Assembly (NCBI GenBank): GCA_041661665.1
Contig: JBAZTW010000004.1
Coordinates: 5,121 to 69,120 of the forward strand
Reading direction: 5' to 3'
DNA: 64,000 bases
Source: Phycisphaerae bacterium
Lineage (GTDB): Bacteria > Planctomycetota > Phycisphaerae > Sedimentisphaerales > UBA12454
The notes under the pieces: model-generated
The model's database searches: none
What the model was told of the DNA's origin: nothing
The model's input: only the letters and a program-made list of their open reading frames with translations
Part shown: positions 2,342 through 64,000 of the stretch, piece after piece
Layout: every line of letters begins with the position of its first letter
How positions within the stretch are numbered: the stretch's first letter is position 1
Position numbers and translations under genes: made by a program

Positions 2342-3937
2342 TTACCAGAACCACCAATACAAGAAAACCCAAATCACGGCATAAAGAGAAAACCATATAA
2401 TAAGGTTGGCATACCATGGGCGTTTGATTCCATCATCATAGCTTGCCAGCAGGGATGGCCGCCACCAGAATGGCTGCCATTTGCTTTCTTCGGGAGGCGC
2501 GGTATTCAAAGCAATAATCACCATACCAGTCATAATCAACACTTCAGCAATAAATGCAAGATATAACCAGTGAAGATGCCATCCAAACATATTATCCGCA
2601 AACACAATAAGCAGCTGTATCACGATACCGCCAATCAGACCAAACAGCGCGCTGGCATAGTTGGCCCTTTTCCACAGAATTCCCAAAATGATAACAGAAA
2701 TTATCGGCGTGGACAGATAAGTAACCCCTCGCTGGAAATACATGAAAATGCCGCCAAATTGCGAAACAACCGGCGCAAGTATGCCTGCAATCGCAAGGGC
2801 AAGAAACGAAACCATGCGACCGGTCCACACCATCTGTTTATCAGTAGCATCTTTTTTAATTCTTTTATAGATGTCCAGCGAAAATATCGTAGCGGTTGAA
2901 TTCGCCAAGGCGCTTGTGGCAGACATTACTGCCGCCAAAAAACCGGCCAAGATGATACCCTTCAAGCCCCATGTTCCCGCAAATGTCTTGAGGGCGAATG
3001 GAAATGTCGTATCGGGATTCGCCAAAGGCTCGGCCATTTTCATAACATGGATGTAATGGTACACGATAAGGCCGAGAAAACACGTTACCAGCGGACGAAA
3101 CAAATTGATAAAACCGGCAAAAATAATACCCATGATGCCGTCCCATCGTGAGCGGGCGGCAAGCACACGCTGAATCATCACCTGGTTCGTGGCCTGATAA
3201 AAAACAAATAACCCCAGTGTCCCTGTCAGTAATCCCAAAAACGGCGCGACCGGATCTCCGGGCGGATGATAGAGATGAAATCTTTCAGGATTTGCCGCCT
3301 GCATCGCACTCCATCCGCCTGGAATATTCTTTAATGCCAGGAAATAGAGCAATATGCCGCCGCCCAGCAGCATAACACATTGGACAGCGTCAGTGTACAT
3401 AACGGAAATCAGGCCTCCTTTGACCGTATAAAGCCCTATCAAAATAATTGTTGCCCATAGCACGATATAGAAATTCACTCCCGTCAGTTCTGAAAATGCC
3501 AGACTTCCGCCGTATAGAATCGAAACCATAAAGATAAAAACATACGCGAAAAGCATCGTCCAACTGTAAATATCGCCGCACAACTGGCCATACCGTCGCG
3601 TCAGAAGTTCAGGAACGGTTGCTATGCGATTTTTCAAATAGATTGGAATAAAAAATAGGATTAACAATGTATAAGGCGGCAATGCCCACCATTCCCAGTT
3701 CGCTATGCCCATTCCATTCTTGTAGGCCGCCCCGACCGTTCCAACAATCTGCTCGCTGGAAACACTTGTTGAAACAAATGCGGCTCCGATAATCCACCAC
3801 CTCAGTTTGCCCGAAGCGAGAAAGTATCCTCGCGCGGTTTTGTCTTGTCTATGAGTTGCTAATAATCCAACAGCAACTACGATGAGTACTGAGCCGACGA
3901 TTATCAGCGTATCGATAAACGATAGTTCAAAATGCAT
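2342..3937 (-). CDS. Sodium:solute symporter (SSS/SLC5 family)
   Basis: About 13 hydrophobic segments; 'YFLASGKLRWW', 'NQVMIQRVLAARS', 'GFLAAVMS' motifs. Confidence 0.92.
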   Translation of the reverse strand: MHFELSFIDTLIIVGSVLIVVAVGLLATHRQDKTARGYFLASGKLRWWIIGAAFVSTSVSSEQIVGTVGAAYKNGMGIANWEWWALPPYTLLILFFIPIYLKNRIATVPELLTRRYGQLCGDIYSWTMLFAYVFIFMVSILYGGSLAFSELTGVNFYIVLWATIILIGLYTVKGGLISVMYTDAVQCVMLLGGGILLYFLALKNIPGGWSAMQAANPERFHLYHPPGDPVAPFLGLLTGTLGLFVFYQATNQVMIQRVLAARSRWDGIMGIIFAGFINLFRPLVTCFLGLIVYHYIHVMKMAEPLANPDTTFPFALKTFAGTWGLKGIILAGFLAAVMSATSALANSTATIFSLDIYKRIKKDATDKQMVWTGRMVSFLALAIAGILAPVVSQFGGIFMYFQRGVTYLSTPIISVIILGILWKRANYASALFGLIGGIVIQLLIVFADNMFGWHLHWLYLAFIAEVLIMTGMVIIALNTAPPEESKWQPFWWRPSLLASYDDGIKRPWYANLIIWFSLYAVIWVFLYWWFW

Positions 3938-4014
3938 TATTGTTATCTCCTTAAAATATAAAATCCAAATTTATTTTGTGACGTTTTCAACAAATCCATA
4001 TTGCAGGACAACTA

Positions 4015-4857
4015 TCATTGGCTTGGATGACATTGGAAATTGCCTTTGTTTGCTTTGTCTATTACAAATTCAAGTATCTGTCTGGTATCATTATAACTCG
4101 TATCGTGTCCCATTTCCGGCCTATTTACCAAACATACCTCTTTACCCAGTTTTTGCAAAACACCTGCCAAACGCACAGCGCTATCGGGGGGCACTATCGT
4201 ATCTTTTCCGCCTACGCTTATCCCAACGGGGAAATTAAATTTTTCCGGCCAATACTCGGCGCTGCGTTTCTTGTATTCGCCGGGAATATCCTTTTTCGTT
4301 CCGCCAAAAGACTGGGCAATCGCATCCTGAAAACCCTCATATTCCAAATGGTTTGCCATAGGGTTCATTGCCGCAACACCGGCAATCATATCAGGGTGCA
4401 ATACCGCAAAGGTCAGGGCGGACGAACCTCCCATCGAACCGCCGCACAGAAAAACCCTATCTATCTTATAATGCGCCTTGAACTCCTTAATTATTTGCAC
4501 AACATCCGCCTCTGCGGCAGGACCCATCCATGATGTCTTCGCCCTGTAATCGGGCGCCGCAAATATCATGTTTCTGTCCCCTGCAACATCTCTTGGAGCC
4601 ACGCATTGCGGTCTATTCGCTTCGGCAAATTGCAATCTGTCCGAGCCATGCCCATGCAGTGCAATCAGCAGGTCGTGATTCGTACAGTTATTGAAATCCT
4701 CTGGTAATCGCAAAATATATCGCTGCATAGTCTGGTCATAGTCAGACTTAAACTCAATGTCCTCGCTTTTTCCCAGGCCCTTGCCCATAGCAGGAGAAAA
4801 CGCACACACACTGAATAGCACTATAACCGCTATTATTTTTAAATTATTCATAAACAA
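4015..4857 (-). CDS. Secreted alpha/beta-hydrolase (esterase/prolyl-oligopeptidase-like)
   Basis: Signal peptide; LHGHG oxyanion motif; GGSMGG nucleophile; GGKD..V and MGH complete the triad. Confidence 0.85.
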   Translation of the reverse strand: MFMNNLKIIAVIVLFSVCAFSPAMGKGLGKSEDIEFKSDYDQTMQRYILRLPEDFNNCTNHDLLIALHGHGSDRLQFAEANRPQCVAPRDVAGDRNMIFAAPDYRAKTSWMGPAAEADVVQIIKEFKAHYKIDRVFLCGGSMGGSSALTFAVLHPDMIAGVAAMNPMANHLEYEGFQDAIAQSFGGTKKDIPGEYKKRSAEYWPEKFNFPVGISVGGKDTIVPPDSAVRLAGVLQKLGKEVCLVNRPEMGHDTSYNDTRQILEFVIDKANKGNFQCHPSQ

Positions 4858-4918
4858 CTCGCATTTTTTCTAACGAAGATGTTATTCTTACACATAAACC
4901 AAATCGCCTAATTCTGCT

Positions 4919-6118
4919 TTAAAGATGTTCGACTGCGGATGCCTCTGCAGCAGCTCCACAGGTATTTACAAGAATTTCTTTTAATTTAGGTTCAAGCCCT
5001 TCGGCTATCATATAAAATCCCCTATCTGTCAAATGCGTTCCATCAACAGACGGATGATCGCCGCCGACGGGGATAATTTCACCGCTGTCAAAGAGAAATA
5101 CTTTTTTATCGCCCTCAGCCCTGAGCTTATTATATGTATCAAAGACGGGCTCATTGTGACGCTTATATTCGGCCGCCTGCTCAGGCAGGAGTTCTCCTGA
5201 ATAGTGAATCTGCGTCATTAAAAGCACCGGCGTCTGGGGCCTGTTTTTGCGTAATATTCTGACAAATTTTTCATATCTTTCATTCATCAGGTTTATATTC
5301 ATATTTGCAACACTGTCAACAACATAAACTGAAGCATCTATTTGACTGATAATCTGTGCCATTGCAAGCTCACCTAAGCCGCCGGCTGAAAAACCGAGAT
5401 TAACAACGTCACAATTAAGTTTTCGCTCAATCACCGAAACAAAACCATTGGAGCCTCTGGAAGCACAACCGCCTTGCGTTATTGAAGTGCCATAAAAAAC
5501 AATCGGTTTTTTGATTTTATATTCGGTCGGCTTTAAGATTTTGGCATCGGAATCTATGCCTATTTGCAGCTCGGCCAGTTCCGCGTAGCAGGGAAGATAT
5601 AAAGTGAACTCCCTCATCATAGAAGGCAGTTTTTCAAAATAGAGGTATTCGTATTCCTTATTAGGGTCTTGCGGTTTGACTGTCTTCCAATAAGACATCT
5701 GTCCAGGAGAACCGATGTACAAATCTATTCCGCTAACAGCAACCGAGCTCATATGGTACATCGAAACTCCGTTAACAGCGCTCACCTCATACATCGGCAT
5801 ACTGCCTGTCCCAATCATACCATGGTGAATTTTCAATCTTAACGACGTTGAATCGGTCTTAAATCTTATTCTTGCCGAAGACGGACATAAACTCATTAAC
5901 CATGCCGTTTCATTCACATTTTTCTTTTCCGATAAAGGCAGCCTGATAAACTTATGGCCGTTTTGCTCAAACCACGCCAAACCATAAACAACCATATTTA
6001 CATCCTTACACGGATTAAGCCAAACTATATTGCTTTGAGCGTTCACCACAGAAACTAATAAACTAACAATAAAAATGTATTTTAACTTATGCATTCTAAT
6101 CCTTTTATTCGCAGTCAT
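4919..6118 (-). CDS. SGNH/GDSL hydrolase with N-terminal GxDLY domain
   Basis: 'SGIDLY', 'FYGTSITQG', 'NLGFSA', 'DGTHLTDRG'; signal peptide (start may be 6094). Confidence 0.85.
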   Translation of the reverse strand: MTANKRIRMHKLKYIFIVSLLVSVVNAQSNIVWLNPCKDVNMVVYGLAWFEQNGHKFIRLPLSEKKNVNETAWLMSLCPSSARIRFKTDSTSLRLKIHHGMIGTGSMPMYEVSAVNGVSMYHMSSVAVSGIDLYIGSPGQMSYWKTVKPQDPNKEYEYLYFEKLPSMMREFTLYLPCYAELAELQIGIDSDAKILKPTEYKIKKPIVFYGTSITQGGCASRGSNGFVSVIERKLNCDVVNLGFSAGGLGELAMAQIISQIDASVYVVDSVANMNINLMNERYEKFVRILRKNRPQTPVLLMTQIHYSGELLPEQAAEYKRHNEPVFDTYNKLRAEGDKKVFLFDSGEIIPVGGDHPSVDGTHLTDRGFYMIAEGLEPKLKEILVNTCGAAAEASAVEHL

Positions 6119-6220
6119 CCATAGGCGCTCTTATTGAAATCCACTGGTAATCACAAAATATATCGCTGCATAATTTGGCCATAGTCAGACCTGAATTCAA
6201 CATCCTTATTTTTTCCTATC
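6117..6220 (-). pseudogene. Decayed fragment of a paralog of the 4015-4857 hydrolase N-terminus
   Basis: Reads IGKNKDVEFRSDYGQIMQRYIL*LPVDFN vs LGKSEDIEFKSDYDQTMQRYILRLPEDFN; CGA>TGA nonsense change. Confidence 0.8.
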
Positions 6221-7112
6221 AACTACTGCTGCCATTATGCGTATTATGCAATGCCATATTGTCTAAAAACTTCCGGCTATACACCTCATTCTTAAGACAC
6301 CAGCATTCGATGTGTACTTTTTCATCGCCAGGATAAATCGTCTGCATCATTCCCAGCGTTTCTAATTCCACAAAGTCGCGACAGGTATAAACTTCAACAT
6401 TACAGCCGCTATCAGGATAAAGGCTTTCCGACGCTGCGGAATCATAGTACTTAAGGAATGTACTGTCTTTCAGAGACAGCGCCATCCATCCTCTATCGCT
6501 GTACACCCCAATTTTACTTTTTTCGCCATTTGGTTCAACGATTACCGCATCTCGTGTCATATGCCAAAGTGAACTTTTAACACAACGCTCAAAATCGCCG
6601 ATACTTGCCCAATGGCATATTTTATTAATGCGCCACTGATCAGTCCCTAACCCCCACGGAACAATAACCGACCCCTCGGGACGCACCGCTGTAAGCCCCC
6701 ATGCGGCCCCCTGCCACAAGACATCGCCGACATTCCGCAATATATGGCGTAATTCAAACCCGCCGCATCGTGCACATGGCCGAATCTCCAGAATTCGCTG
6801 TATTTTATGGCGTCCGACCGGACAGCTTATCCGCAGCGACTGCTCGCCGCGTATTACTTCGCATGGCGTATTATCTGCCTCGTAGGTATCGGTAGTTTCA
6901 GGAGAAACAGTGAAACGATGACCACCATAAAGTTTAAAATCACCAGATGCCCAACCGGTAGTATCTTCAAATAAAATGTTGCTGCCGTCGGCACGTCGAA
7001 AACAGAGTATGCGAGGCCCAATTTCCGTAACCACAATCAATTCAACTGAATTGTACATACAACGATATGCTGTATTCCAATCGCGATATTTTATTTTTTC
7101 AATCTGCATCAT
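6219..7112 (-). CDS. DUF4380-like / galactose-mutarotase-fold protein
   Basis: 'IGPRIL', 'YGGHRF..SPE', 'YPDSGCNVEVY..FVELETLG' motifs. Confidence 0.6.
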   Translation of the reverse strand: MMQIEKIKYRDWNTAYRCMYNSVELIVVTEIGPRILCFRRADGSNILFEDTTGWASGDFKLYGGHRFTVSPETTDTYEADNTPCEVIRGEQSLRISCPVGRHKIQRILEIRPCARCGGFELRHILRNVGDVLWQGAAWGLTAVRPEGSVIVPWGLGTDQWRINKICHWASIGDFERCVKSSLWHMTRDAVIVEPNGEKSKIGVYSDRGWMALSLKDSTFLKYYDSAASESLYPDSGCNVEVYTCRDFVELETLGMMQTIYPGDEKVHIECWCLKNEVYSRKFLDNMALHNTHNGSSS

Positions 7113-7120
7113 TGTACCGA

Positions 7121-8269
7121 CTATGCTTCAATAGAAACCCAGTTTCCACGTTTTGCGCTTTGAATGACAGCTTCCACCACTACATCCGCGATATGGCCAT
7201 CTGCAAAGGTTGCAAAATCTATTTCTTTAGATTCTCCGGCAATATATCTATATACATTCCGGCAGAAATTTTTTACTGCGCTTGGATAGCCTTCATTATG
7301 ACCTGCCGGGTAATGAGCATAATCTCTTATGCCTTTATCCATCAACACGGCATCTTTCATCTGAAGCTGGTTAGGCTGATTTCTCTGCCCTATCATCAGT
7401 TCGTTAGGCCTTTCGTGGTCCCACCAGACGCTTTTCTCTGTACCGTTAAGCTCAAATACAATATGATTTTTTCTACCTGCCGAAACGTGCGTAATACAGG
7501 TCATACCTTTTGAACCATCATCAAATTGCAGCAGAACGTGGCCGTAATCTTCGGTATTTATTTTTACTTTTTCATAATCGTCCGGTTTTAACTCTTTGCC
7601 GGAGAATGTTTCTATTTGACCTTTTGGTTTTTTACGGTATTCGTGAAGCGTCAGTAAATCTGCAAATACTTTTACGATTTTCTTTCCCGTTACAAACTGA
7701 ATCAAATCAAACCAATGTGAACCGATGTCGCCCATCACCCTGCTGTCGCCGGCCATTTTGGGGTCTAATCGCCAACTCCAGTCTGTATCATACAGCAGCC
7801 AGTCCTGCATATAACAGCCCTGCACGGCGAACACCCTGCCAAGCTGACCGTTCTTAACCATCATTCTCGCCTGCTGAACAAGCGGATAATAACGATAGTT
7901 AAAATTAACCGCGTTGACTAAGCCTTTTTCTTTTGCAAGTTTTACAAGCTCTGCGGATTCTTTGCTATTCATTCCGAGCGGCTTTTCACTGATGCAGTGC
8001 TTACCGGAATTGAGGATGTCTTTATTAACCTGCAGATGCATAAAATTAGGCGTGCAGTTATGAATTACATCAATGCTTTTATCTTTAAGCATTTCTTTGT
8101 AATTGCCATAAGCCGTTGGGACACACAATTGGCCGGCCTTTTTTTCTGCTAATTCCTGATTAGCCTCTGCAACAGCGGCAACTTCAACGTTGCCAAGTCT
8201 TCGCAACGCCTCTATATGTGCCGGTCCGATATAGCCTGTACCAATGATACCAGCTTTGAACTTTTTCAT
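7121..8269 (-). CDS. Gfo/Idh/MocA family NAD-dependent oxidoreductase
   Basis: GIIGTGYIG Rossmann motif, 'SEKPL', 'GDIGSHW'. Confidence 0.92.
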   Translation of the reverse strand: MKKFKAGIIGTGYIGPAHIEALRRLGNVEVAAVAEANQELAEKKAGQLCVPTAYGNYKEMLKDKSIDVIHNCTPNFMHLQVNKDILNSGKHCISEKPLGMNSKESAELVKLAKEKGLVNAVNFNYRYYPLVQQARMMVKNGQLGRVFAVQGCYMQDWLLYDTDWSWRLDPKMAGDSRVMGDIGSHWFDLIQFVTGKKIVKVFADLLTLHEYRKKPKGQIETFSGKELKPDDYEKVKINTEDYGHVLLQFDDGSKGMTCITHVSAGRKNHIVFELNGTEKSVWWDHERPNELMIGQRNQPNQLQMKDAVLMDKGIRDYAHYPAGHNEGYPSAVKNFCRNVYRYIAGESKEIDFATFADGHIADVVVEAVIQSAKRGNWVSIEA

Positions 8270-8273
8270 AGCT

Positions 8274-9305
8274 CTATCCCAACAGATGATTCATTATCAA
8301 AAGGTCGAGTTCTTCATAATCTCGCTGAGCGGTAAGATTTGCGACTTTCGCATCGCTAAGACTTCTTGAGAGCTTCAGCAATCTGAGGAATATTGCTCTG
8401 CTGCTGGTCAAATGCTTTGCCGCCACATTGTCTTTTTGAGTTCTCATAGCCTTTACATCCAGACCGACCCACTGACCGTCTTTGCCGTAATCGTGCTTAT
8501 CGAGAATTCTAACCTGATTGAACGCTCTCCGCAAGTCAACCGAACCGAAAGACTTATCCTGGTCAAATTTCAAACCATTCTGGTCATTAAGATGAACAGA
8601 CCACAGCTTCTTATGAGCAAGTGCATAGCCCATTTCATCCGATGGGTCAAGCCCCGCTAAAATCGCGTGAGCGGATTCAATTACACAGCCAATGCGTGAA
8701 GCGTCATGAGTCAGCATACCAAGACCAATCGCGTGTCCGATTGTCGGAATATATGTATGATCCATAGGCTCGTTGGGCTTGGCTTCAATCGCAATACGAA
8801 CATTAGGATTGTAATCAAGCATAGCATTTATTGCATCTACAAGTCTGTCAACGGCAACTTTACTGTCTTTGGATTCTCTAATATAGGTTCCCTCGCGAGC
8901 TAACCATAAAACAATCAGGTTAGTGCCGAGCGCATCAGCTATATCAATCGCCCTTTTGCTTCTTTCAACTGCGTATTTTCTGTTTTTGGGGTCATTGTTT
9001 GTATAACCGCCGTCAATTGTGCGGGCGTCTTCCCAAAGCCGCGGAGCGACAAACTCTGCAACCAGCCCTTCGTTTTTAAGCTGCTTTGAAAGAGCCGCAG
9101 CCTTTTTAATGATTTGTTCATTCGAAAGCTGATTCATATCCGGCACAGCATCATCATCGTGAAACTGCATACCGTCAAAGCCAAGCTTCTTATACATCTT
9201 CAGTTTTTTGCCAAATGCAACATCTTTTCTTACTGCCGGGCCAAATGGGTCTGCTCCCTGATGGATGTTCCAGGGTCCGAATGTAAATTTAAATTTTCCA
9301 GCCAT
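8274..9305 (-). CDS. Xylose isomerase family TIM-barrel enzyme
   Basis: 'DPFG', 'FHDDD', 'WLAREG', 'EAKPNEP', 'FDQD' metal-binding motifs of class I-like xylose isomerases. Confidence 0.8.
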   Translation of the reverse strand: MAGKFKFTFGPWNIHQGADPFGPAVRKDVAFGKKLKMYKKLGFDGMQFHDDDAVPDMNQLSNEQIIKKAAALSKQLKNEGLVAEFVAPRLWEDARTIDGGYTNNDPKNRKYAVERSKRAIDIADALGTNLIVLWLAREGTYIRESKDSKVAVDRLVDAINAMLDYNPNVRIAIEAKPNEPMDHTYIPTIGHAIGLGMLTHDASRIGCVIESAHAILAGLDPSDEMGYALAHKKLWSVHLNDQNGLKFDQDKSFGSVDLRRAFNQVRILDKHDYGKDGQWVGLDVKAMRTQKDNVAAKHLTSSRAIFLRLLKLSRSLSDAKVANLTAQRDYEELDLLIMNHLLG

Positions 9306-9317
9306 TTTTCAGTCTCC

Positions 9318-10130
9318 TTATCTCAGATATTTAAGCGTTTGTTTTAGTGATTTTGTATGGTCTAATTTCGGGAAATACTCCAGTCCGAAACATCCTTTAT
9401 AACCAAGTTCATCTAACTTCCTGATGATTGCAGGGTAGTTGACTTCTGTATCGAAAAGTTCTGCTCTGCCAGGAACGCCTGCCGAGTGAAAATGCCCGAT
9501 GATGTCTATATTCTTAGAGATAAAATCAATAATATTACCCTGCATAATCTGCATATGATAAACATCATAAAGAAGTTTCAGGTTTGGGCTGTTGATTTTG
9601 CGAACTATTTTTACTGCTTCTGCCATACCATCAATAAAATACCCTGCATGGTCAACCAGGCTATTGAGCGGCTCAAGCAGAAGAGTAACATTCGCCTTTT
9701 CTGCCAACTTTACCGCTTTGGTATAAGCCTTTGTCAGATTGGCAATCATTTTTTCCTTGGACATATTTTTCTGGGTCATACCTGAAAGTATGATGCCGTT
9801 TTTGCAGCCGATTGCATTTGCAAAGTCCAGCATTTTCTTAGTCTGCTCAAGATATTTCGCAAGGTCCTTATCATTGGTAGCATTCCCGCCAATTGAACCA
9901 TCCCATGCGCTAAATGCAAAATCATTGATTGTGATACCGTTATCTTTTGCGGCTTTCTTCAGAGATTTTGCGTCTTTTGCCTGCGAAAAATCCACACCCT
10001 TTCCATCAAAAGTACCTTCCGGGTGCCAGAACTCTACAGCTTTATAACCTATGGCGGCTATTTTTTCGATTCTTTTTTCAAAAGGCAGATTTGTAAAAAA
10101 ACATTCTGCGCATACGCTTAATTTAGCCAT
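9318..10130 (-). CDS. Hydroxypyruvate isomerase-like (Hyi) TIM-barrel protein
   Basis: 'LEPLN', 'LYDVYHMQIMQG', 'AGVPGR', 'GLEY'; ATG at 10130 with RBS. Confidence 0.85.
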   Translation of the reverse strand: MAKLSVCAECFFTNLPFEKRIEKIAAIGYKAVEFWHPEGTFDGKGVDFSQAKDAKSLKKAAKDNGITINDFAFSAWDGSIGGNATNDKDLAKYLEQTKKMLDFANAIGCKNGIILSGMTQKNMSKEKMIANLTKAYTKAVKLAEKANVTLLLEPLNSLVDHAGYFIDGMAEAVKIVRKINSPNLKLLYDVYHMQIMQGNIIDFISKNIDIIGHFHSAGVPGRAELFDTEVNYPAIIRKLDELGYKGCFGLEYFPKLDHTKSLKQTLKYLR

Positions 10131-10146
10131 TTTTATAAACTCCTTT

Positions 10147-11472
10147 TTATTTAAGATAAACGCCGAGAACTTTGTTGATTGCTGTCGATATTTTGTTGCA
10201 GTCTTCATCGCTGTAGTTACATCCGATATCAATGAGAATTGCTTTTGACAACAGCTCAAGCGTTTTTGGACACATATCTTTTGTGTACTTCGGTAATTCG
10301 TTTTTCGGCACTCCGCTCCACGGAAGCTTGTCCGTTGAAACTGACTTGTACTGGAGAATATGCTCCCAGTAATTGTAGGTATGCCAATCTCTTACTTTTG
10401 AGTCGTAAATTCCACCACATGGAACGCCTTCCGCTTTTAATGCCGGCAGCGCTTTTTTAGTTGTCTCAGCATCCGGCAGGAACATAATCAGGCAAATGCC
10501 GGTATCGCCAACTTCATCAGCCAGTCTCCTGAAACTAAGACCTTTAAATTTTTCAATAGCATTCTTAATTTTATTGTTAGCATTTCTATGTCCGGATACG
10601 ATGGCTTTTGCACGTCTGATTTGTGCCAAAGCAACAGCGCCTTCCATTTCGCTCATCCTGTAGTTTTCGCCGCAGAACAAATCTTCATTTTCTTTCTCAG
10701 GTCCAAATCTGTCAGGCCTCCAGCAGGCGGCACAATCGTGCCAATTTAAGGCTCTTGTATAAAGTCTTTCATCGTTTGTTGTGTAGAATCCACCTTCACC
10801 GCTTACAATAATTTTGTAATAGTCAAAGCTGAAGCAGCCGATTTTACCGATACTGCCGAGCATTTTGCCTTTAAATGAACCACCCGCTGCCTGAGCGACA
10901 TCCTCAATTACCGGAACGCCGTGCTTATTGGCAACATCCATAATAGCGTCCATCTGTGCGGGCGCGCCTCTCATATGAACCGGAACAATGGCTTTTGTTC
11001 TCTTGGTTATAGCTTTTTCAATCGCTTTCGGATCCATACAAAGCGTTTCGTCAACATCAACTATAACAGGTATTGCATTTGAGGCGACAACTGTCGCAGA
11101 TGTAGCAAAAAATGTGTACGCCGGAACAATAACCTCATCGCCCATACCGATTCCCAGCGAACGATAAGCCGTTACCAATGCCGATGTGCAGGAATTAGCG
11201 GCCATACAGAACTTTGTGCCGATAAGCTCTTTCATTGCGGTTTCTGCCGCTGACACTTTGCTCGGACGCGGATTGTAATATCTGAAAAGGTGAGGTCCTT
11301 TAAGGTTTTTTTCGCCTTCGATAATCGCTTTAATTTTAGATGTGTTTTCAGGCGACAACTGCCACAAATCAAGCACTTCAAGCAGTTCATCTTTGCCGAT
11401 TTTGGTCGGGAATGGTCCCAGTTTATCCGCTGCTTTTGAGCCGCCTTCAATTGCCAATTTTTGTTTAGCCAT
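10147..11472 (-). CDS. DegT/DnrJ/EryC1/StrS PLP aminotransferase
   Basis: 'VPAYTFFAT', 'IEDVAQA', 'FSFDYYK' (PLP Lys), 'GENYRMSE'. Confidence 0.9.
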   Translation of the reverse strand: MAKQKLAIEGGSKAADKLGPFPTKIGKDELLEVLDLWQLSPENTSKIKAIIEGEKNLKGPHLFRYYNPRPSKVSAAETAMKELIGTKFCMAANSCTSALVTAYRSLGIGMGDEVIVPAYTFFATSATVVASNAIPVIVDVDETLCMDPKAIEKAITKRTKAIVPVHMRGAPAQMDAIMDVANKHGVPVIEDVAQAAGGSFKGKMLGSIGKIGCFSFDYYKIIVSGEGGFYTTNDERLYTRALNWHDCAACWRPDRFGPEKENEDLFCGENYRMSEMEGAVALAQIRRAKAIVSGHRNANNKIKNAIEKFKGLSFRRLADEVGDTGICLIMFLPDAETTKKALPALKAEGVPCGGIYDSKVRDWHTYNYWEHILQYKSVSTDKLPWSGVPKNELPKYTKDMCPKTLELLSKAILIDIGCNYSDEDCNKISTAINKVLGVYLK

Positions 11473-11549
11473 TTATTGCTCCATTTTTTCTAATTATAAA
11501 TTTTGCACTACTGGTTATGTTTATATATACAAAGTCACCGTTATCGTGT

Positions 11550-11577
11550 ACAATAACACACGAACCTTTAGAGTCAA
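11550..11577 (-). promoter_or_regulatory. Sigma70-type promoter of the aminotransferase operon
   Basis: Minus strand TTGACT-N16-TATTGT with TGn extension. Confidence 0.45.
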
Positions 11578-11678
11578 GAAAAAAGGCTCTTGAGATGAGA
11601 TACCCGCCATAAATTGGTAGGATTATTTTTCAGTAACATAGTTATAACTTAGAAATTAGACCTTTTAATGGATATTTT

Positions 11679-12239
11679 GTGGATACAAACAATCTCGGTA
11701 TCGCTCTGAAAAGGCTAAGAACGGAAAAAGGCATAGGATTGCGCCAGTTAAGCCGTCAGGCTGACATTTCGCCGGCATCGCTCGTAGCCATCGAAAAAGG
11801 CACAAGCAGCCCCACACTGGCCACATTAGGGAAAATCCTAAGCGAACTCGGATATGATTTAGCCGATTTCTTTGTAATGTCCAAGAAAAATGTGGATGCC
11901 CCCGTATGCTTTCAATCAGAAATGCAGAGTCTTGCAGATAAAAACAGGATATATAAATATCTTTTGCCTAAAACAGCCAAAAGGCGTTTTATATTAGTTC
12001 ACGAAACCATTGCCCCAACCGAAAAACAAAGTGAATGGGAACAGCACGACTATGATTTGGCAGGCACTATACTTTCAGGCTGTCCGGCTGAATTGGAAAT
12101 AGAAAACCAGGGTCAATGGAAACTTAAAACTGGCGATGCGTTTTATATACCCGCTCATAAGCAGCACCGTCTAACAAATTTATCGAAAAAGCCTTTGAGG
12201 CTGATAACAGTATCCGAAAGCCACAAGCCAAGACGTTAA
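11679..12239 (+). CDS. XRE-family HTH + cupin transcriptional regulator
   Basis: 'LRQLSRQADISPASLVAIEKGTSSPTLATL' HTH; C-terminal cupin 'GDAFYIPAHKQH'; divergent from the catabolic operon. Confidence 0.88.
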   Translation: MDTNNLGIALKRLRTEKGIGLRQLSRQADISPASLVAIEKGTSSPTLATLGKILSELGYDLADFFVMSKKNVDAPVCFQSEMQSLADKNRIYKYLLPKTAKRRFILVHETIAPTEKQSEWEQHDYDLAGTILSGCPAELEIENQGQWKLKTGDAFYIPAHKQHRLTNLSKKPLRLITVSESHKPRR

Positions 12240-12313
12240 TTACCGTAAGCATATATGTTTAGCGTATCAAACTTTGGCGCAGAGAGTATTTTTAACGAAA
12301 TGAACCAAAAGAT

Positions 12314-12346
12314 AAAGCCTTGTAAGGGTTTATCTCACAAGGCTTT
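12314..12346. terminator. Hairpin between convergent regulator gene and tRNA
   Basis: aaagccttgt...acaaggcttt 10-bp stem. Confidence 0.55.
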
Positions 12347-12352
12347 ACACAA

Positions 12353-12426
12353 CGAGGCCGAAGGGGCTCGAACCCTCAACCTTCGGATCGACAGTCCGAC
12401 GCTCTAACCAATTGAGCTACGGCCCC
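12353..12426 (-). tRNA. tRNA-Asp(GTC)
   Basis: GGGGCCG/CGGCCTC acceptor stem, D-loop TAGCTCAATTGGTTAGAGC, anticodon loop CT-GTC-GA, GGTTCGAG T-loop; CCA not encoded. Confidence 0.96.
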
Positions 12427-13284: not shown

Positions 13285-13938
13285 TTAATCCGCATCCGGT
13301 TTTTTCTGCAAAACTTTGTGTTCGGTTCCTGCGATGAGGCGTTTGATATTTGTTCTGTGCAGGAAAATCACCAGTGAACATAAAACCATCGCCGCTGCGA
13401 TTAAAGGCCACAAGACAGCAAATTTCCAGCTTTTCAAGAAAGCCGTCATAGCAATCATTATAAATGGAAAAACCGCGGCTGAAATAATTGCGGCAAGCGA
13501 GATGTACTTGGAGACGAGAACTATTGTCGCCCAGAGGATAAATACGATAATGCCGGGCAATGTATAATAAGGCCAGATACCCAGAACAACGCCAAAACTT
13601 GTCGCCACGCCTTTACCGCCTCTGAATTTCAGATAGAATGGAAAGATGTGCCCCAGTATCGCCGCTGCGCCGACCGCCAGCCACAGCCAAAAATCTGAAG
13701 AGCCGGCTGCATCGGAAAATAAAAAATATCCGCAAAATGAGGGTATAAACCCCTTGAGCGTATCGAGCAGAAAGCAGACATATGCCCAGTTTTTGCCGCA
13801 GGCTCGCGACAGATTTGTAGCGCCGAGATTGCCTGAGCCGACTTTACGCAGGTCAATTCCTTTTGCTTTTGCGATAATCATCGCAAATGAAATCGAACCA
13901 ATTAAATATGATGTGATTATTAGAAGCAGAGTTTTCAT
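13285..13938 (-). CDS. plsY: Glycerol-3-phosphate acyltransferase PlsY
   Basis: 'YLIGSI', 'GSGNLGATN', 'GHIFPFYLKFRGGKGVAT', 'HRTNIKRLIAGTE'. Confidence 0.95.
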   Translation of the reverse strand: MKTLLLIITSYLIGSISFAMIIAKAKGIDLRKVGSGNLGATNLSRACGKNWAYVCFLLDTLKGFIPSFCGYFLFSDAAGSSDFWLWLAVGAAAILGHIFPFYLKFRGGKGVATSFGVVLGIWPYYTLPGIIVFILWATIVLVSKYISLAAIISAAVFPFIMIAMTAFLKSWKFAVLWPLIAAAMVLCSLVIFLHRTNIKRLIAGTEHKVLQKKPDAD

Positions 13939-15107
13939 AATTTTTTATTTTTAATTTTTTTATATAATTCTAATAGTTTTTTACAATGCGTTTCAATCGA
14001 AACTTTAGTTTTTATATTGTCATCGACAATCGCTTTTTTAGCGGCCGTGATATTTTCAGCATTGCAATAAAATTGCATCGCCTCAGCCAGCGAATCGACA
14101 TCGTCTGGCGAATCAAAGACTCTTCCGTGCCTGCCGGCGACAAATAAATCTTTCGCTCCATTATACTTCGTCGTAATCACAGGTCTGTCCGCCGCCAGAG
14201 CCTCAAGCACAAATCGGCTCGATGGGTCATAATACGTCGGCAAAACCGCAACATCACAAACCGCCAGCAAATAACGAATTGAACCGGCAGGGCCAAGAAA
14301 TAAAATTTTATCTTTTACGCCAAGCTTACCGGCCAATCTGCGGTATTTTCCAGCAGAACCTCTGCCGGAAACAATGACATAGGCAGGCCTTTTGGTAAAT
14401 TTATTAGTTAAAATCGCAATGGCTTTTACCAGTGGGGTAAGCCCTTTGAGTCTGAAATTGTGAGCGCCGAAAAGAAAAAACACAGGCTCATCCGCCTGTT
14501 TGATATTCAATTTATCAAAAATCTGTCTGCGAAGCCTGTCAGCCTTTGCCTTGTCAACTGCGGCAGACGGACGAATGCCGTTGGGTATTACAAAAATTCT
14601 TTCGTCCGGCAGATTATAATATTTCTTAAACTGATTTTTAACGTATTCGCTCAATGCGGCGATGACCGGGGTATCGGAATTTTTACAGATTCGTTTCTCG
14701 GCACAGGCAAGCGAAGTCCTGCGAAAATTAGTTACATTCGTGAGAAGTTTGAAAATACGTATCGCGGTATTATCATAACTTGCGGCATTGCGAATAGCCG
14801 CCTCTGGGTAACTTCCGCCGCGAGGCTGATAAACATCGACAAAATCAAAAGGCAGAACACTGTGGATTATATCGTAGTGATTTTCCTTAAAATGTGCCGA
14901 AAGAGCAATTTTAAACTCTTTTAAGCCGACTCTCTTTTTGCCGCTGCCGCAGAGAATCTCCACCCTTCGCGAACGCGTAGTGCCGGTCGCCGCGAGAATT
15001 TTTACATCAACGCCGAGCAGAACCATTTTGGCCGTAAGCTCAAAAACGCTTCTTTCCGCGCCGCCAAGACGCAAATTCGCTCGTTCTGTTATTATCGCAA
15101 GTTTCAT
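13935..15107 (-). CDS. Glycosyltransferase family 4 (WaaG/RfaG-like)
   Basis: 'GGAERS', 'IPNG', 'KGL', 'YDPSSRFVLEALAA'. Confidence 0.85.
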   Translation of the reverse strand: MKLAIITERANLRLGGAERSVFELTAKMVLLGVDVKILAATGTTRSRRVEILCGSGKKRVGLKEFKIALSAHFKENHYDIIHSVLPFDFVDVYQPRGGSYPEAAIRNAASYDNTAIRIFKLLTNVTNFRRTSLACAEKRICKNSDTPVIAALSEYVKNQFKKYYNLPDERIFVIPNGIRPSAAVDKAKADRLRRQIFDKLNIKQADEPVFFLFGAHNFRLKGLTPLVKAIAILTNKFTKRPAYVIVSGRGSAGKYRRLAGKLGVKDKILFLGPAGSIRYLLAVCDVAVLPTYYDPSSRFVLEALAADRPVITTKYNGAKDLFVAGRHGRVFDSPDDVDSLAEAMQFYCNAENITAAKKAIVDDNIKTKVSIETHCKKLLELYKKIKNKKL

Positions 15108-15134
15108 AAATTAATAGCCAATAGTCATTAGTTC

Positions 15135-15185
15135 GTAGGGTGGGCTCGCCTGTCCTGAGCTTGTCGAAGGGTCAGCCCACGCGGT
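15135..15185 (+). repeat. GTAG-type REP-like palindrome (family B) with nested insert
   Basis: gtagggtgggctcg[cctgtcctgagcttgtcgaagg]gtcagcccacgcgg; near-identical to 29435-29485. Confidence 0.85.
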
Positions 15186-15999
15186 TGTTTTCAAAAGGAG
15201 CATATCTGTTATGTTTTTTATCGTGTTTAGCCATTTGTTTTGCTTTTGATTTAATTTTTCTTATCAGTATCCTATCACAAATAGAAAGTTTTGTTTTGCC
15301 CGTATAAGCCAAATAAAATCTCAACCTGTCAGCCCTGGTAATCACGCTGCCGGGCGAAGAATAATAAAGCTGTGCGAGGTCTTTTACAAGAAACTTCCCG
15401 CCGAAAACCATCGGCTTAAAAACTCTGTTCAAATCTATCAGCGTAAATTTCCCCGCATCATCGCAAAATATATGACACAAATATAAATCACGATGACGAA
15501 AACCGGCCTTGTGAAATTTACTCACAAACGCGGCAAGATGTTCGATAAACTTTTTTCTGCCCTTGAAAAAAAGAGCAGGCAGTCTTTTTTCCAGACTTTC
15601 CGCATTCGGCACTTTTTCTGTAATAATAAAACTTCGCTTTTCAAAAATGCCCTGCCACTGCACGCCGAAAGCGACTGTTTTCGGAACATTTATGCCTAAT
15701 CGGCTTAAAATCTCGGCTGGTCTCCTGTCGCAGTCCATCGTGGAAATCCGCCTTCGCCGCGAAAACCAGTTATCAATCTGTTTGGATGCAGGTATGTTTT
15801 GATAGCGTTTTAAGAATAGCGTCGTTTTTGGGTTTTCAGTCTCAAATTTAATCCGCTGACGAAATGATGCGAGATTTTCCTTAATTAAATTTTGCCCGCC
15901 GGAGAATTTGAAAACATCGTCAATGCTTTCAAGCCCGATTTTCTTAAAGCAGTCGGTGAATTCCGGGATGATGTGCATCATCTCGCTCATTTGCGCCAC
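15172..15999 (-). CDS. LPS core kinase (WaaP/Kdo kinase, InaA family)
   Basis: 'LFLKRY', 'FHKAGFRHRDLYLCHI', 'LIDL', 'KDLAQL'. Confidence 0.85.
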   Translation of the reverse strand: MAQMSEMMHIIPEFTDCFKKIGLESIDDVFKFSGGQNLIKENLASFRQRIKFETENPKTTLFLKRYQNIPASKQIDNWFSRRRRISTMDCDRRPAEILSRLGINVPKTVAFGVQWQGIFEKRSFIITEKVPNAESLEKRLPALFFKGRKKFIEHLAAFVSKFHKAGFRHRDLYLCHIFCDDAGKFTLIDLNRVFKPMVFGGKFLVKDLAQLYYSSPGSVITRADRLRFYLAYTGKTKLSICDRILIRKIKSKAKQMAKHDKKHNRYAPFENNRVG

Positions 16000-17021
16000 T
16001 CGGAAAGAACTTTTTCAGCCGCGGCGCAAACACTCTGAGCGGTTATCGATTGCATACAATAATGTTTATCTTTTTTACAAACAGGTTTGTCGCACGGAGC
16101 ACAGGGCATATCTGCGACAATTTTTATTTCATCATCATAATCGCTTTGTGTCCAGGCCGGATTATTCGGCCCGAAAAGCGTAATAATTTTTTTGCCGAGC
16201 GCAATTGCTATATGCCGCGGGCCGGTGTCGTTGCTGATTACAAGGTCGGAAAAATGAAACAACGCCTTTAATTGACCAAGCGAAACAGGCGTATCGGCCA
16301 GATTAACAGCAGGATGTTTTGCCAGTGAACAAATCTTCTCGGCAATGCGTCTTTCCTGCGCAGCGGGACTTACCGAAATAAAAACATTTGCAGAAAAATT
16401 TTCAACCAGAAAATCAATCACAGCCGCAAATCTTTCTTCCGGCCAAATCTTGCTCGGCCCGAATGCCCCGCCCGGAACGATTATAACCACAGGCTTTGAC
16501 CGAACTAAATAATTCGCAAATTTCTCGCCGATAACTTCGCGGTCGTTTTTGGCAACCTCAAGCTGCATCTTTTTATTCGTTGCAGCTCCGTCAATCGCAT
16601 CCGCTATCGCCAGATAATAATCTATGACAGAGACAGGCTCATACTTAAATGCCGATACCTTTTGAGGATAAAGTTTTCCATTCAGCAAAAAACCTCTCCC
16701 CTCTCTGGCGTAGCCTATTCGTGATTTAATCCCAGCTAAAAAAACCGCCATCGCAGACGCGAAAGAATTTTTAAAAAGTATCGCGGCATCAAATTTATGT
16801 TTTCTCAATTCCGCAGCAATCGCAAACGGATTATTTTTTTTAACTATCACCCAGCCATCGGCGAAAGAAGTCGGACTCAAAACATCAGCAACGGTTTTGC
16901 TTGCGCAAAAATAAATTTTCGTGTCGGCAAAACACTCTCTGATGCTGCGCAGAGCAGGCGTTGCCATTATGGCATCACCCATCGGCGACGGAAGCCAAAT
17001 TAATATGTTTCTTGCACTCAT
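15987..17021 (-). CDS. waaF: LPS heptosyltransferase II
   Basis: 'PSPMGDAIMATP', 'PGGAFGPSKIWP', 'SNDTGPRHIA'. Confidence 0.88.
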   Translation of the reverse strand: MSARNILIWLPSPMGDAIMATPALRSIRECFADTKIYFCASKTVADVLSPTSFADGWVIVKKNNPFAIAAELRKHKFDAAILFKNSFASAMAVFLAGIKSRIGYAREGRGFLLNGKLYPQKVSAFKYEPVSVIDYYLAIADAIDGAATNKKMQLEVAKNDREVIGEKFANYLVRSKPVVIIVPGGAFGPSKIWPEERFAAVIDFLVENFSANVFISVSPAAQERRIAEKICSLAKHPAVNLADTPVSLGQLKALFHFSDLVISNDTGPRHIAIALGKKIITLFGPNNPAWTQSDYDDEIKIVADMPCAPCDKPVCKKDKHYCMQSITAQSVCAAAEKVLSEWRK

Positions 17022-17033
17022 AAATTATAGAGT

Positions 17034-17136
17034 ATTGAAAATTGTAAATTGAAGATTGAAGATTTAGAATTATTAAACAGTTTCCCGACTCATCGGGATT
17101 CCACAATTCTTCAATTTTCATTCTTCAATTTTCATT
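17034..17136 (+). repeat. Family A repeat with both heptamer arms
   Basis: (attgaa/gattgaa)n ... cccgactcatcggg-attccac-(ttcaatt)n. Confidence 0.7.
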
Positions 17137-18301
17137 ATTTGTCCTTGTGCATTACATAAAGCGTAAGCGTCATAATCTGAAAAAAAATTGCAAAACCCAG
17201 CGAGGTATAAACCGCACTATCGGCAGGAGTCAGCGACATTTTGTATCGTATAGCAATAAATACACATGCCGCTGCGACAATCTGCATAAAACCCGCGAAA
17301 AGTTTAAAAACCGAAAACTCCGTGTAAAGCTCCTGACGATTGCGGCTCTTCATCAGCAGTCTGATTTCTTCGAGAAGTTTTTCAGTTTTCGAACTGTCGC
17401 CCGCGGGAACTTTAAATTCCACATTATCGACAGGTTTTTGCCGCTGTGGTTTTTTTTCAATCGTTTCAACAGCCTTTGGCTCTTCCATTTGCTCTTTCTC
17501 TTCTTCTTCGAGCGGCTGCGGAACAATTTCTTTTTCAGCTGGACGCTCAACAACGACAGCCTGCTTAACCTTTATTGGCTCAGGCACCGCAACAGGTTTT
17601 AGAACAGGTTCAGGTTCAACAATAATCGGCTGCGAAACAACGACAGGATTTGTCGCCGGTGATAGCACAGCAACAGGCGGTGCAGAAGGAGCAGTAACCG
17701 GAGTCGGAGCAGGCACAGCCGCGGCGACAACAGGCTTTGGCATCGTTTCTCTTTTTATTATATTGACCGCCTCACGAAGATTGACCGCCTCGAAATCAGC
17801 GTCCTGGTCGCCCTGTTTTTTCACAGGTATTTTCAAAGACTGCTTAATGAGAATCGTTCGACAGCCCGCAGCCTTACCGGCAGCGACATCCTGATAAGTA
17901 TTGCCGACCATCCAGGAGTCCGATAGATTAAGATTCATTTCCTTGGCCGCGGCAAGCAGCATCCCCGGCTTCGGCTTTCGCCAGTCGCTGTCTTTTCTGT
18001 ATTTTTGAATCACACCATCGGGATGATATGGACAATAATATATCCTGTCCAAATAGGCATTTTGCTCAGCTAAAAGCTGTTTGAGTTTTTCGTGAATCTG
18101 GCCGAGAGCCTGTTCGGTAATTATGCCGCGAGCGATGCCGGACTGATTGGAAATAACAACGAGCTTATAGCCCATCTTCCTGAAATCCGCAACCGCAGAT
18201 GATGCGAATTGAAGCAGTTTGACCTGGTCCGGACTATTTATATATCCGGGGTCTTCGATAATTGTATCATCTCTATCAAGAAAAATTGCCTTGTTCGACA
18301 T
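17135..18301 (-). CDS. gmhB: D,D-heptose 1,7-bisphosphate phosphatase (GmhB) with Pro/Ala/Val-rich linker and two C-terminal TM helices
   Basis: 'FLDRDDT', 'SNQSGIARG', 'YYCPYHP', 'RKPKPGML', 'VGNT..DVAAG'; about 200-aa extension. Confidence 0.85.
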   Translation of the reverse strand: MSNKAIFLDRDDTIIEDPGYINSPDQVKLLQFASSAVADFRKMGYKLVVISNQSGIARGIITEQALGQIHEKLKQLLAEQNAYLDRIYYCPYHPDGVIQKYRKDSDWRKPKPGMLLAAAKEMNLNLSDSWMVGNTYQDVAAGKAAGCRTILIKQSLKIPVKKQGDQDADFEAVNLREAVNIIKRETMPKPVVAAAVPAPTPVTAPSAPPVAVLSPATNPVVVSQPIIVEPEPVLKPVAVPEPIKVKQAVVVERPAEKEIVPQPLEEEEKEQMEEPKAVETIEKKPQRQKPVDNVEFKVPAGDSSKTEKLLEEIRLLMKSRNRQELYTEFSVFKLFAGFMQIVAAACVFIAIRYKMSLTPADSAVYTSLGFAIFFQIMTLTLYVMHKDK

Positions 18302-18304
18302 AAT

Positions 18305-18880
18305 CTATTTTCCCTCGGCAAAATGTTTTTCCACAAGTCCGCAGACAATATGATACGCAATCTGATGAATTTCCTGAGTCGCGAAACTTTTTTCCGCATC
18401 AGCGCACAAACAAACATCAGAATTTTTTTCGAGCTTGCTGTTTTTCCTGCCAGTGAACGCAATCACCTTTGCGCCGCGTTTTTTGGCAAATTCGGCTGCC
18501 TTTATAATATTGATACTGCTGCCGCTGGTAGAAAACGCCCAGAGACAGTCATTATTTTTAACTAACCCTTCAACCTGTCTTGCGAAAATATCGTCGAACC
18601 TATAATCGTTGCCGACACTTGTCAGGACTGATGTATCCGTCGAAAGCGCAACCGCAGGCAGAGCCTTTCGCTCTAATAAAAATCTCCCGATAAATTCACC
18701 GGCTATATGCTGACAATCAGCAGCCGAGCCGCCATTGCCGCACAAATAAAGCGTCCCGCCGTTTTCGATACTATCAATTATTATCTTAGCGGTCTTCTCT
18801 ATCGCATCAACACCCGCGACTTCAAGAGCATCGACCATTTTTTTGTGTTTTTTAATCGTCTCAATGATTTGCTGTTTCAT
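18305..18880 (-). CDS. gmhA: Phosphoheptose isomerase
   Basis: 'CGNGGSAADCQH', 'STSGSS', 'QEIHQ'; ATG at 18880. Confidence 0.93.
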   Translation of the reverse strand: MKQQIIETIKKHKKMVDALEVAGVDAIEKTAKIIIDSIENGGTLYLCGNGGSAADCQHIAGEFIGRFLLERKALPAVALSTDTSVLTSVGNDYRFDDIFARQVEGLVKNNDCLWAFSTSGSSINIIKAAEFAKKRGAKVIAFTGRKNSKLEKNSDVCLCADAEKSFATQEIHQIAYHIVCGLVEKHFAEGK

Positions 18881-62798: not shown

Positions 62799-62844
62799 TA
62801 CTTCGTACCACTGTTAATTGCGATGTTTTTCAAGAACAGCAACC

Positions 62845-63999: not shown

Positions 64000-64000
64000 A

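Follow-up and report, generated by a model that had tools for sequence, protein, structure and literature searches.

A conserved DegT aminotransferase and Hyi-like gene pair in a probable amino-sugar catabolic operon of a Phycisphaerae bacterium

The DegT family is familiar from the synthesis of amino sugars that go into antibiotics or the cell surface. KdnA of Shewanella oneidensis, the closest solved relative of the enzyme considered here, takes part with KdnB in the formation of Kdo8N and acts on the free 8-oxo derivative of 3-deoxy-D-manno-octulosonic acid (8-oxo-Kdo), that is, without a nucleotide. Another DegT-family aminotransferase acting on a nucleotide-free sugar is found together with a Gfo/Idh/MocA oxidoreductase in the NtdC/NtdA/NtdB kanosamine pathway of Bacillus subtilis, which is biosynthetic, starts from glucose 6-phosphate and needs a phosphatase. 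Gfo/Idh/MocA oxidoreductases are also combined with xylose-isomerase-like TIM barrels in a group of keto-sugar pathways, namely those of the levoglucosan proteins LgdA/B1/B2/C, of YcjS and YcjR (YcjQRS) in E. coli, of the 3-keto-glucoside enzymes of Agrobacterium (AtHYD) and of BT2157-2159 in Bacteroides (PMC8121099). In all of these the keto group arises by oxidation of a hydroxyl. The same keto-sugar logic is recognizable in an operon of eight genes, headed by a DegT aminotransferase gene and divergent from a regulator gene. Operon and regulator together occupy positions 2342 to 12239 of a 64-kb window (the whole stretch of DNA analysed), which is part of contig C4 in a genome bin of 2.3 Mb, 95% complete; here, however, the keto group is proposed to be made by the transaminase.

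On balance, this locus is probably an inducible catabolic operon for an imported, nucleotide-free amino sugar, either free or glycosidically bound, and the amine is most likely removed by a transaminase and not by the usual deaminase. What is directly observed is which genes are present, how tightly they are packed into an operon, the synteny of the DegT gene with a Hyi-like gene and the conservation of a palindrome in front of them, while each chemical step is proposed from the chemistry known for the respective enzyme family. The catabolic character attributed to the locus in the initial annotation, which considered it to be built around the DegT enzyme, is supported by the importer, by partners typical of glycan breakdown and by the conserved DegT-Hyi core.

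The DegT gene (10147..11472, minus strand) encodes a pyridoxal phosphate (PLP)-dependent aminotransferase of 441 aa belonging to the DegT/DnrJ/EryC1 family and to a KdnA-like subfamily (PF01041, 1e-76; 259 bits, gathering cut-off 19.8). KdnA (5k8b) is its nearest solved relative both by sequence (9e-66; 225 bits, against 164 for the next solved DegT relative) and by fold (Foldseek rank 1, TMt 0.85, 34% identity); it is followed by a metagenomic sugar transaminase, Fic25 and BtrR, whereas the enzymes acting on nucleoside diphosphate (NDP) sugars rank lower, and NtdA is distant (4k2b, 1e-26). Lys220, kept without exception in 38 sequences, lines up with the lysine of KdnA in the ...SFD..K motif. 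Since the Schiff-base lysine is present, the protein can be considered an aminotransferase and not a dehydratase of the His type. Together with the PLP lysine, KdnA shares a C-terminal extension with the window enzyme; nevertheless, KdnA is biosynthetic and has an iron alcohol dehydrogenase as its partner, while the window enzyme is accompanied by a Hyi-like TIM barrel in an operon linked to an importer. With an identity of 34-40%, and no iron alcohol dehydrogenase of the KdnB type among the operon genes, the protein falls outside the KdnA group itself. A further peculiarity is the insertion WHDCAACWRPDRF (residues 244-256), which is invariant and missing from KdnA. Three cysteines (C213, C250 and C267) are invariant and three others (C95, C401 and C425) nearly so; a role of these cysteines and of the insertion, with its WHDCAACW motif, as a metal site or a lid is possible, the model being of low confidence in this segment (pLDDT 53-67). 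The restriction of the aminotransferase to NDP-sugars, which would have undermined a catabolic function, is indirectly spoken against by the nucleotide-free substrates of its nearest characterised relatives, KdnA, Fic25 and BtrR, and by the lack of a nucleotidyltransferase gene in the operon.

The second gene of the operon (9318..10130, minus strand) encodes a protein of 270 aa resembling Hyi and OtnI, predicted to be a metal-dependent TIM-barrel ketol isomerase or keto-sugar epimerase (PF01261, 5e-40). Its start had been placed at a TTG at position 10259; this has been replaced by the ATG at 10130, which has an AAAGGAG ribosome-binding site in front of it and lies 16 nt downstream of the DegT stop codon. 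The scores against the equivalog models TIGR03234 (161 bits, cut-off 353) and NF043033 (151 bits, cut-off 325) leave it outside both families, even though Hyi and OtnI (YgbM, PDB 1k77) are its best matches in sequence and fold. In the AF2 model (pLDDT 94), the nearest folds are 3ngf and 1k77 (TM 0.84-0.91), followed by ketose 3-epimerases, the 3-keto-glucoside 4-epimerase YcjR and the 2-hydroxy-3-keto-glucal hydratase AtHYD; these neighbours are metal enzymes that deprotonate the carbon beside a sugar carbonyl. The invariant residues E153, D189, H215 and E251, predicted by analogy to be metal ligands, would give the modelled barrel the Glu-Asp-His-Glu site that Hyi and OtnI also possess. Unlike these two enzymes, the window protein has an aminotransferase as its partner, with no genes of the glyoxylate or tetronate pathways nearby.

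The association between these two genes was followed in 80 loci carrying DegT orthologues (57-93% identity; one genome per species), in which open reading frames (ORFs) were called and clustered and the recurrent clusters annotated. In 58 of the 67 loci with a callable DegT gene, the Hyi-like gene follows directly, and because of this adjacency the clustering cannot be due to chance. The bins holding the related loci belong to about six phyla (Planctomycetota, Verrucomicrobiota, Kiritimatiellia, Lentisphaerae, Hydrogenedentota and Latescibacterota), and the same pattern was seen again in an independent sample of the class (L005-L008). The conservation of the gene combination, proposed in the initial annotation as a check on the operon, thus holds for the DegT-Hyi core and fails for the full set of eight genes: the SGNH esterase gene was not found in any of the other 80 loci, the DUF4380 gene occurs in 3, and the whole set recurs in close relatives only. 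The conserved unit is therefore DegT-Hyi(-XylA-GFO), where XylA and GFO stand for the xylose-isomerase-like and the Gfo/Idh/MocA gene, respectively; the complete four-gene block is present in 12 loci, with the oxidoreductase gene always placed after the XylA-like one.

The other recurrent partners are the SSS symporter (24 loci), the XylA-like protein (23), the XRE-cupin regulator (19 by clustering, 23 by tblastn), AraC regulators (14 + 9), the oxidoreductase resembling levoglucosan dehydrogenase (12), a BshB1-like de-N-acetylase of the PIG-L type (12), a CE4 deacetylase (5) and a family of giant secreted CBM51 proteins (clusters c11, c12 and c18; about 20), to which GH36, GH2, GH42, DUF2961 and a GH32/43-like protein can be added. 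Orthologues of the alpha/beta hydrolase are found in about 6 loci, and in L021 and L030, where nearly all partners are gathered in a single operon of 13 genes, this domain is fused to an NPCBM domain. The presence of PIG-L and CE4 de-N-acetylases and of glycosidase-like genes in the related loci fits an N-acetyl amino sugar as the substrate. No fusion of DegT with Hyi or with the oxidoreductase was detected among longer proteins, which is weak evidence. DegT orthologues occur patchily and seldom, in 4 of 120 genomes sampled from the class and 2 of 300 from the phylum, too seldom for phylogenetic profiling of the partners to be informative.

About 18 loci (L006-L008, L031-L034, L038, L043, L045, L047-L050, L053, L060, L063, L078, L080 and L090) carry a gene of the MttB superfamily after the DegT-Hyi pair, often together with a URO-D-like gene (about 15 loci) and, in two operons, with a gene for a B12-binding protein, suggesting that the substrate of the MttB-bearing lineages is methylated; none of the three types of genes is present in the window operon. 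L009 and L010, two relatives from the class, carry a giant gene of the c12 family immediately after a DegT paralogue (45% identical), so that paralogues, too, share in the association of this aminotransferase clade with the giant proteins.

The regulator gene (11679..12239, plus strand; 186 aa), divergent from the operon, encodes an XRE-cupin protein with an HTH_3 domain (1.6e-10) and a Cupin_2 domain (9e-13). This is the architecture of PuuR-type regulators, in which the helix-turn-helix domain is followed by a cupin sensor domain and a palindromic operator covers the promoter, as proposed here; the match to PuuR itself (NF007408, 62 bits, cut-off 211) is limited to this common architecture. 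Orthologues of the regulator (46-90% identity) adjoin the DegT gene in 23 loci. The divergent region between the two genes is 206 bp long and contains the 20-bp palindrome CGTTATCGTGTACAATAACA (11539..11558; consensus YGTTAY-N8-RTAACR), which overlaps the -10 hexamer of a promoter-like site found by a consensus scan upstream of the DegT gene (TTGACT-N16-TATTGT with an extended -10 TG, 11550..11577, minus strand). The TTGAC element and the palindrome that follows it are kept in L013, L014 and L016. Of the 23 regulator-bearing loci, 15 have this palindrome at an unchanged position in front of the XRE or DegT gene, which makes it the likely operator of the XRE-cupin protein. Strict matches to it number 13 in 1.2 Mb of loci, 10 of them at that fixed place, and a genome-wide search gave chance-level matches only in the rest of the genome. 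Since the regulator has moved together with the DegT-Hyi pair, it probably senses a substrate or a product of this pair. In the leader of the operon no riboswitch or other Rfam family was found.

A paralogous XRE-cupin gene, 44% identical to that of the window, is located on contig C32 (L094, 1-8805), with no matching palindrome, and heads two genes for secreted proteins of 1225-1238 aa. These have an N-terminal NPCBM/CBM51 domain and belong to the same giant family that accompanies DegT-Hyi in about 20 loci; a third NPCBM ORF lies at the edge of the contig. The look-alikes proposed for these giants by a language model carry (alpha/alpha)6 glycosidase domains (MGH1-like, GDE_C and trehalase), to be taken as a lead only.

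The remaining six genes of the operon, all on the minus strand, encode enzymes of sugar metabolism, two secreted hydrolases and an importer. The third gene (8274..9305) encodes a short but genuine homologue of class I xylose isomerases, 343 aa long (3xim/1xim, 4e-44), so that the operon contains two xylose-isomerase-like TIM barrels, one nearest to hydroxypyruvate/2-oxo-tetronate isomerase and the other nearest to XylA of the Arthrobacter type. The alignment with the enzymes of Actinoplanes and Streptomyces (about 4e-44 over 290 residues) includes the catalytic His/Asp, the Lys and most metal ligands, and the motifs FHDDD, E(A/P)KPNEP, ESAH, FDQD and LDVK are kept; however, the protein is 50 residues shorter, and 'IDLNGQ' of xylose isomerase is 'VHLNDQ' in 23 of 23 orthologues, with a His at the D245 equivalent replacing the metal-1 aspartate. 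This incomplete set of metal ligands and a score of 196 bits against TIGR02631 (cut-off 447) leave it outside the xylose isomerases of the Arthrobacter type. The Gfo/Idh/MocA NAD(P) oxidoreductase (7121..8269; 382 aa) resembles levoglucosan dehydrogenase over its full length (6a3f, 2e-42) more than scyllo-inositol dehydrogenase (5ya8, 2e-30), although its full-length score against NF052479 is 191 bits, below the cut-off of 650. It is followed by a protein of 297 aa (6219..7112) similar to DUF4380 (Pfam, 3.5e-4) and to the 'TTE1925 family mutarotase' (NF052227, 2e-32; full length, below the cut-off), for which no solved relative was found by sequence search.

The next two genes encode a GxDLY + SGNH/GDSL esterase (4919..6118; 399 aa; PF14606, 8e-43, and PF14607, 4e-28) and an alpha/beta-hydrolase esterase (4015..4857; 280 aa; several alpha/beta-hydrolase Pfam families), the latter nearest to the esterase/polyhydroxyalkanoate-depolymerase type. 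No other operon protein has a signal-peptide-like N-terminus (that of the SGNH protein resembles a Sec signal); the oxidoreductase, for instance, lacks one. Given their predicted secretion and their membership in families of O-acyl esterases, the two probably work on the substrate before it is taken up, outside the cytoplasm, without freeing an amine, and a de-acylation by them that would liberate the amino group is not supported. The last gene (2342..3937; 531 aa) encodes an SSS-family Na+/sugar symporter (PF00474, 5e-62; TIGR00813, 263 bits, above the cut-off of 184), nearest to vSGLT (2xq2, 1e-61) and to human SGLT1/2, whereas the match to the sialic-acid carrier SiaT is only 5e-24. Family assignments were obtained from Pfam and NCBIfam profile matches for all nine proteins, and all nine ORFs, eight on the minus and one on the plus strand, are intact; the nine genes and families initially annotated at these coordinates were therefore borne out. 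The intergenic gaps measure 4-16 nt among the first five operon genes and 61-100 nt for the last three.

From these assignments a pathway can be proposed. Outside the cell, the two esterases would strip O-acyl groups from the substrate, and the vSGLT-type symporter would import the sugar or a small glycoside. Any N-acetyl group would be removed by a PIG-L-type deacetylase, encoded on another contig in this genome and within the operon in relatives. The KdnA-like enzyme would then pass the amino group to a 2-oxo acid, leaving a keto- or aldehydo-sugar whose alpha-hydroxy-carbonyl would be shifted or epimerised by the Hyi/OtnI-like barrel; after reduction of the keto-sugar by the levoglucosan-dehydrogenase-like oxidoreductase, a common hexose or ketose would be formed from the product by the xylose-isomerase homologue together with the mutarotase-like protein. 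Bound to the palindrome, the XRE-cupin protein would keep the operon repressed, and binding of the substrate or of an intermediate to its cupin domain would relieve this repression. As to the positions involved, the preferred chemistry runs from a 2-amino to a 2-keto sugar (DegT), to a 3-keto sugar (Hyi/OtnI-like) and finally to the hydroxyl (oxidoreductase). It is put forward quite tentatively, on the grounds that each enzyme would work as its nearest characterised relative does, OtnI on 2-oxo-tetronate and levoglucosan dehydrogenase on 3-keto-glucose.

Several points weigh against such a catabolic pathway. Transaminases are reversible, and the catabolic direction is taken from the context alone; the position of the amine (C2, C3, C4 or the terminal carbon) is not readable from the sequence. 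The oxidoreductase is present in 12 loci and the XylA-like protein in 23, so that the steps after Hyi are lineage-specific; the dehydrogenase, which makes the carbonyl in the Lgd, Ycj and BT2157-2159 pathways, is optional here (12 of 67 loci). The MttB and URO-D-like genes of the methyltransferase type found with the pair in 18 loci are not explained by the model. Finally, the NCBIfam equivalog scores are all far below their cut-offs, which places the operon, as judged from profile matches, outside every curated equivalog family.

The same gene architecture would also serve a substrate with a terminal primary amine beside a hydroxyl (R-CHOH-CH2NH2), such as a 6-amino-6-deoxy sugar or an amino-polyol. 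The aminotransferase, working as KdnA in reverse at C8 of Kdo, would yield an alpha-hydroxy-aldehyde, and the Hyi-like protein would convert it to a hydroxy-ketone as in the tartronate-semialdehyde/hydroxypyruvate reaction. KdnA acts on a terminal aldehyde and is by far the closest solved relative, down to the C-terminal extension, the second enzyme is most closely related to Hyi and OtnI, and the pair alone would give a ketose, which would explain why just these two genes are universal. Such amines are however rare in nature, the PIG-L and CE4 partners indicate ordinary N-acetyl amino sugars, and the low identity to KdnA and the lack of a KdnB-type dehydrogenase mentioned above further speak against this reading, which we regard as unlikely. 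About equally unlikely is a role of the DegT-Hyi pair in breaking the glycosidic bonds of de-N-acetylated hexosaminides, which are poorly handled by ordinary glycosidases. In this variant, the 2-amino group of an imported glycoside would become a 2-keto group by transamination, the OtnI-like isomerase would move the carbonyl to C3, the aglycone would be lost in a beta-elimination like that of the levoglucosan and 3-keto-glucoside pathways, and the levoglucosan-dehydrogenase-like enzyme would regenerate glucose. If true, glycans would be cleaved without hydrolysis by way of a novel entry step, and a DegT enzyme would for the first time be seen in a catabolic role.

Two further explanations appear highly improbable. 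An aminocyclitol such as scyllo-inosamine, an option left open in the initial annotation, would be turned into an inosose by the DegT enzyme and then processed by inositol-type enzymes, in line with the inosose aminotransferases of the BtrR type among the nearest folds and with the similarity of the oxidoreductase to scyllo-inositol dehydrogenase (5ya8); moreover, the SGLT family includes inositol carriers. This option has been weakened by the genome, where no match to IolB was found in the 95%-complete assembly and the best match to IolD is a sub-threshold ThDP-enzyme (225 bits, cut-off 715). The Hyi-like barrel matches IolE at only 7e-6 as compared with 2.5e-47 for Hyi, the glycosidases and de-N-acetylases of the related loci do not suit a cyclitol, and neither do the mutarotase-like protein and the xylose-isomerase homologue, which would have no role on such a substrate and point to an aldose. 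A synthetic direction has been weighed as well, in which the Gfo/Idh/MocA enzyme would oxidise an imported sugar for amination by the DegT enzyme, giving an amino sugar for the envelope. To our knowledge, the pairs of these two enzymes described to date (NtdC/NtdA, GnnA/GnnB and WbpB/WbpE) are all biosynthetic, and a block of lipopolysaccharide (LPS) core genes (13285-21418) adjoins the locus. However, these LPS genes do not recur in synteny in any of the 80 related loci, and the regulator gene and a tRNA gene stand between them and the operon. No nucleotidyltransferase, glycosyltransferase or acetyltransferase was recognized by Pfam or NCBIfam among the operon genes, and the oxidoreductase is missing from most loci. 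The importer and the secreted esterases, all absent together with a Hyi-like partner from the Ntd system, are catabolic company, as are the glycosidases and deacetylases.

If the catabolic use of a DegT aminotransferase on an imported amino sugar is confirmed, a transaminase-initiated route would be added to the few known ones, based on NagA/NagB, AgaS and glucosaminate lyase, and there would be a function for a gene pair that about a hundred uncultured species carry in communities of anoxic groundwater, sediments and reactors. In the literature searched, no account was found of a catabolic DegT-Hyi module or of the transaminative breakdown of kanosamine or other amino sugars, and nothing on TTE1925 or on the sugar transaminases 7b0m/7b0d. 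The value of the system is tempered by the fact that all its parts come from known enzyme families; on the practical side, as a small and soluble pair DegT-Hyi is easily expressed, and the regulator with its operator offers a direct ligand screen.

Elsewhere in the genome, NagA and NagB were not found above their cut-offs (26/226 and 37/237 bits, respectively). NagB was detected in only 1 of 15 sampled genomes of the order, and sub-threshold, and the carrier G015 has both NagB and DegT; because of this its absence is not specific to the carriers, and an anticorrelation between NagB and DegT, considered as a possible clue, was discarded. Partner genes that belong to the operon in relatives are dispersed in this genome. 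Contig C24 (L093, 26000-38831) carries genes for a beta-helix protein, a PIG-L de-N-acetylase, a PfkB-like kinase, an MFS carrier, an MtlD-like dehydrogenase and a cytoplasmic GH38 enzyme; the PIG-L protein is 44% identical to the operon-borne PIG-L of relatives and the MtlD-like protein 61% identical to the partner in L035. This operon probably supplies the steps found inside the DegT operon in L021 and L030, and its PIG-L protein is a better candidate for N-deacetylation than the esterases of the window.

A second sugar operon, also on the minus strand, occupies positions 60761-64000 and continues on contig C4 beyond the window (L095). It encodes a 664-aa SSS symporter, a GH38 mannosidase of 949 aa, a PfkB-like kinase, a URO-D-like protein, a 328-aa protein and two proteins of 416 and 397 aa without a Pfam match; the URO-D-like gene stands here with neither an MttB nor a corrinoid partner. 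The best protein matches and the related loci place the window in the Planctomycetota, class Phycisphaerae, near Sedimentisphaerales, and the only data sets listed as containing its DNA are two groundwater metagenomes, one of which is the probable source, with no RNA set among them. The tRNA gene that lies, with the regulator gene, between the operon and the LPS core block is found at 12353-12426 on the minus strand (Rfam, 71 bits), next to a strong terminator-like hairpin at 12312-12348.

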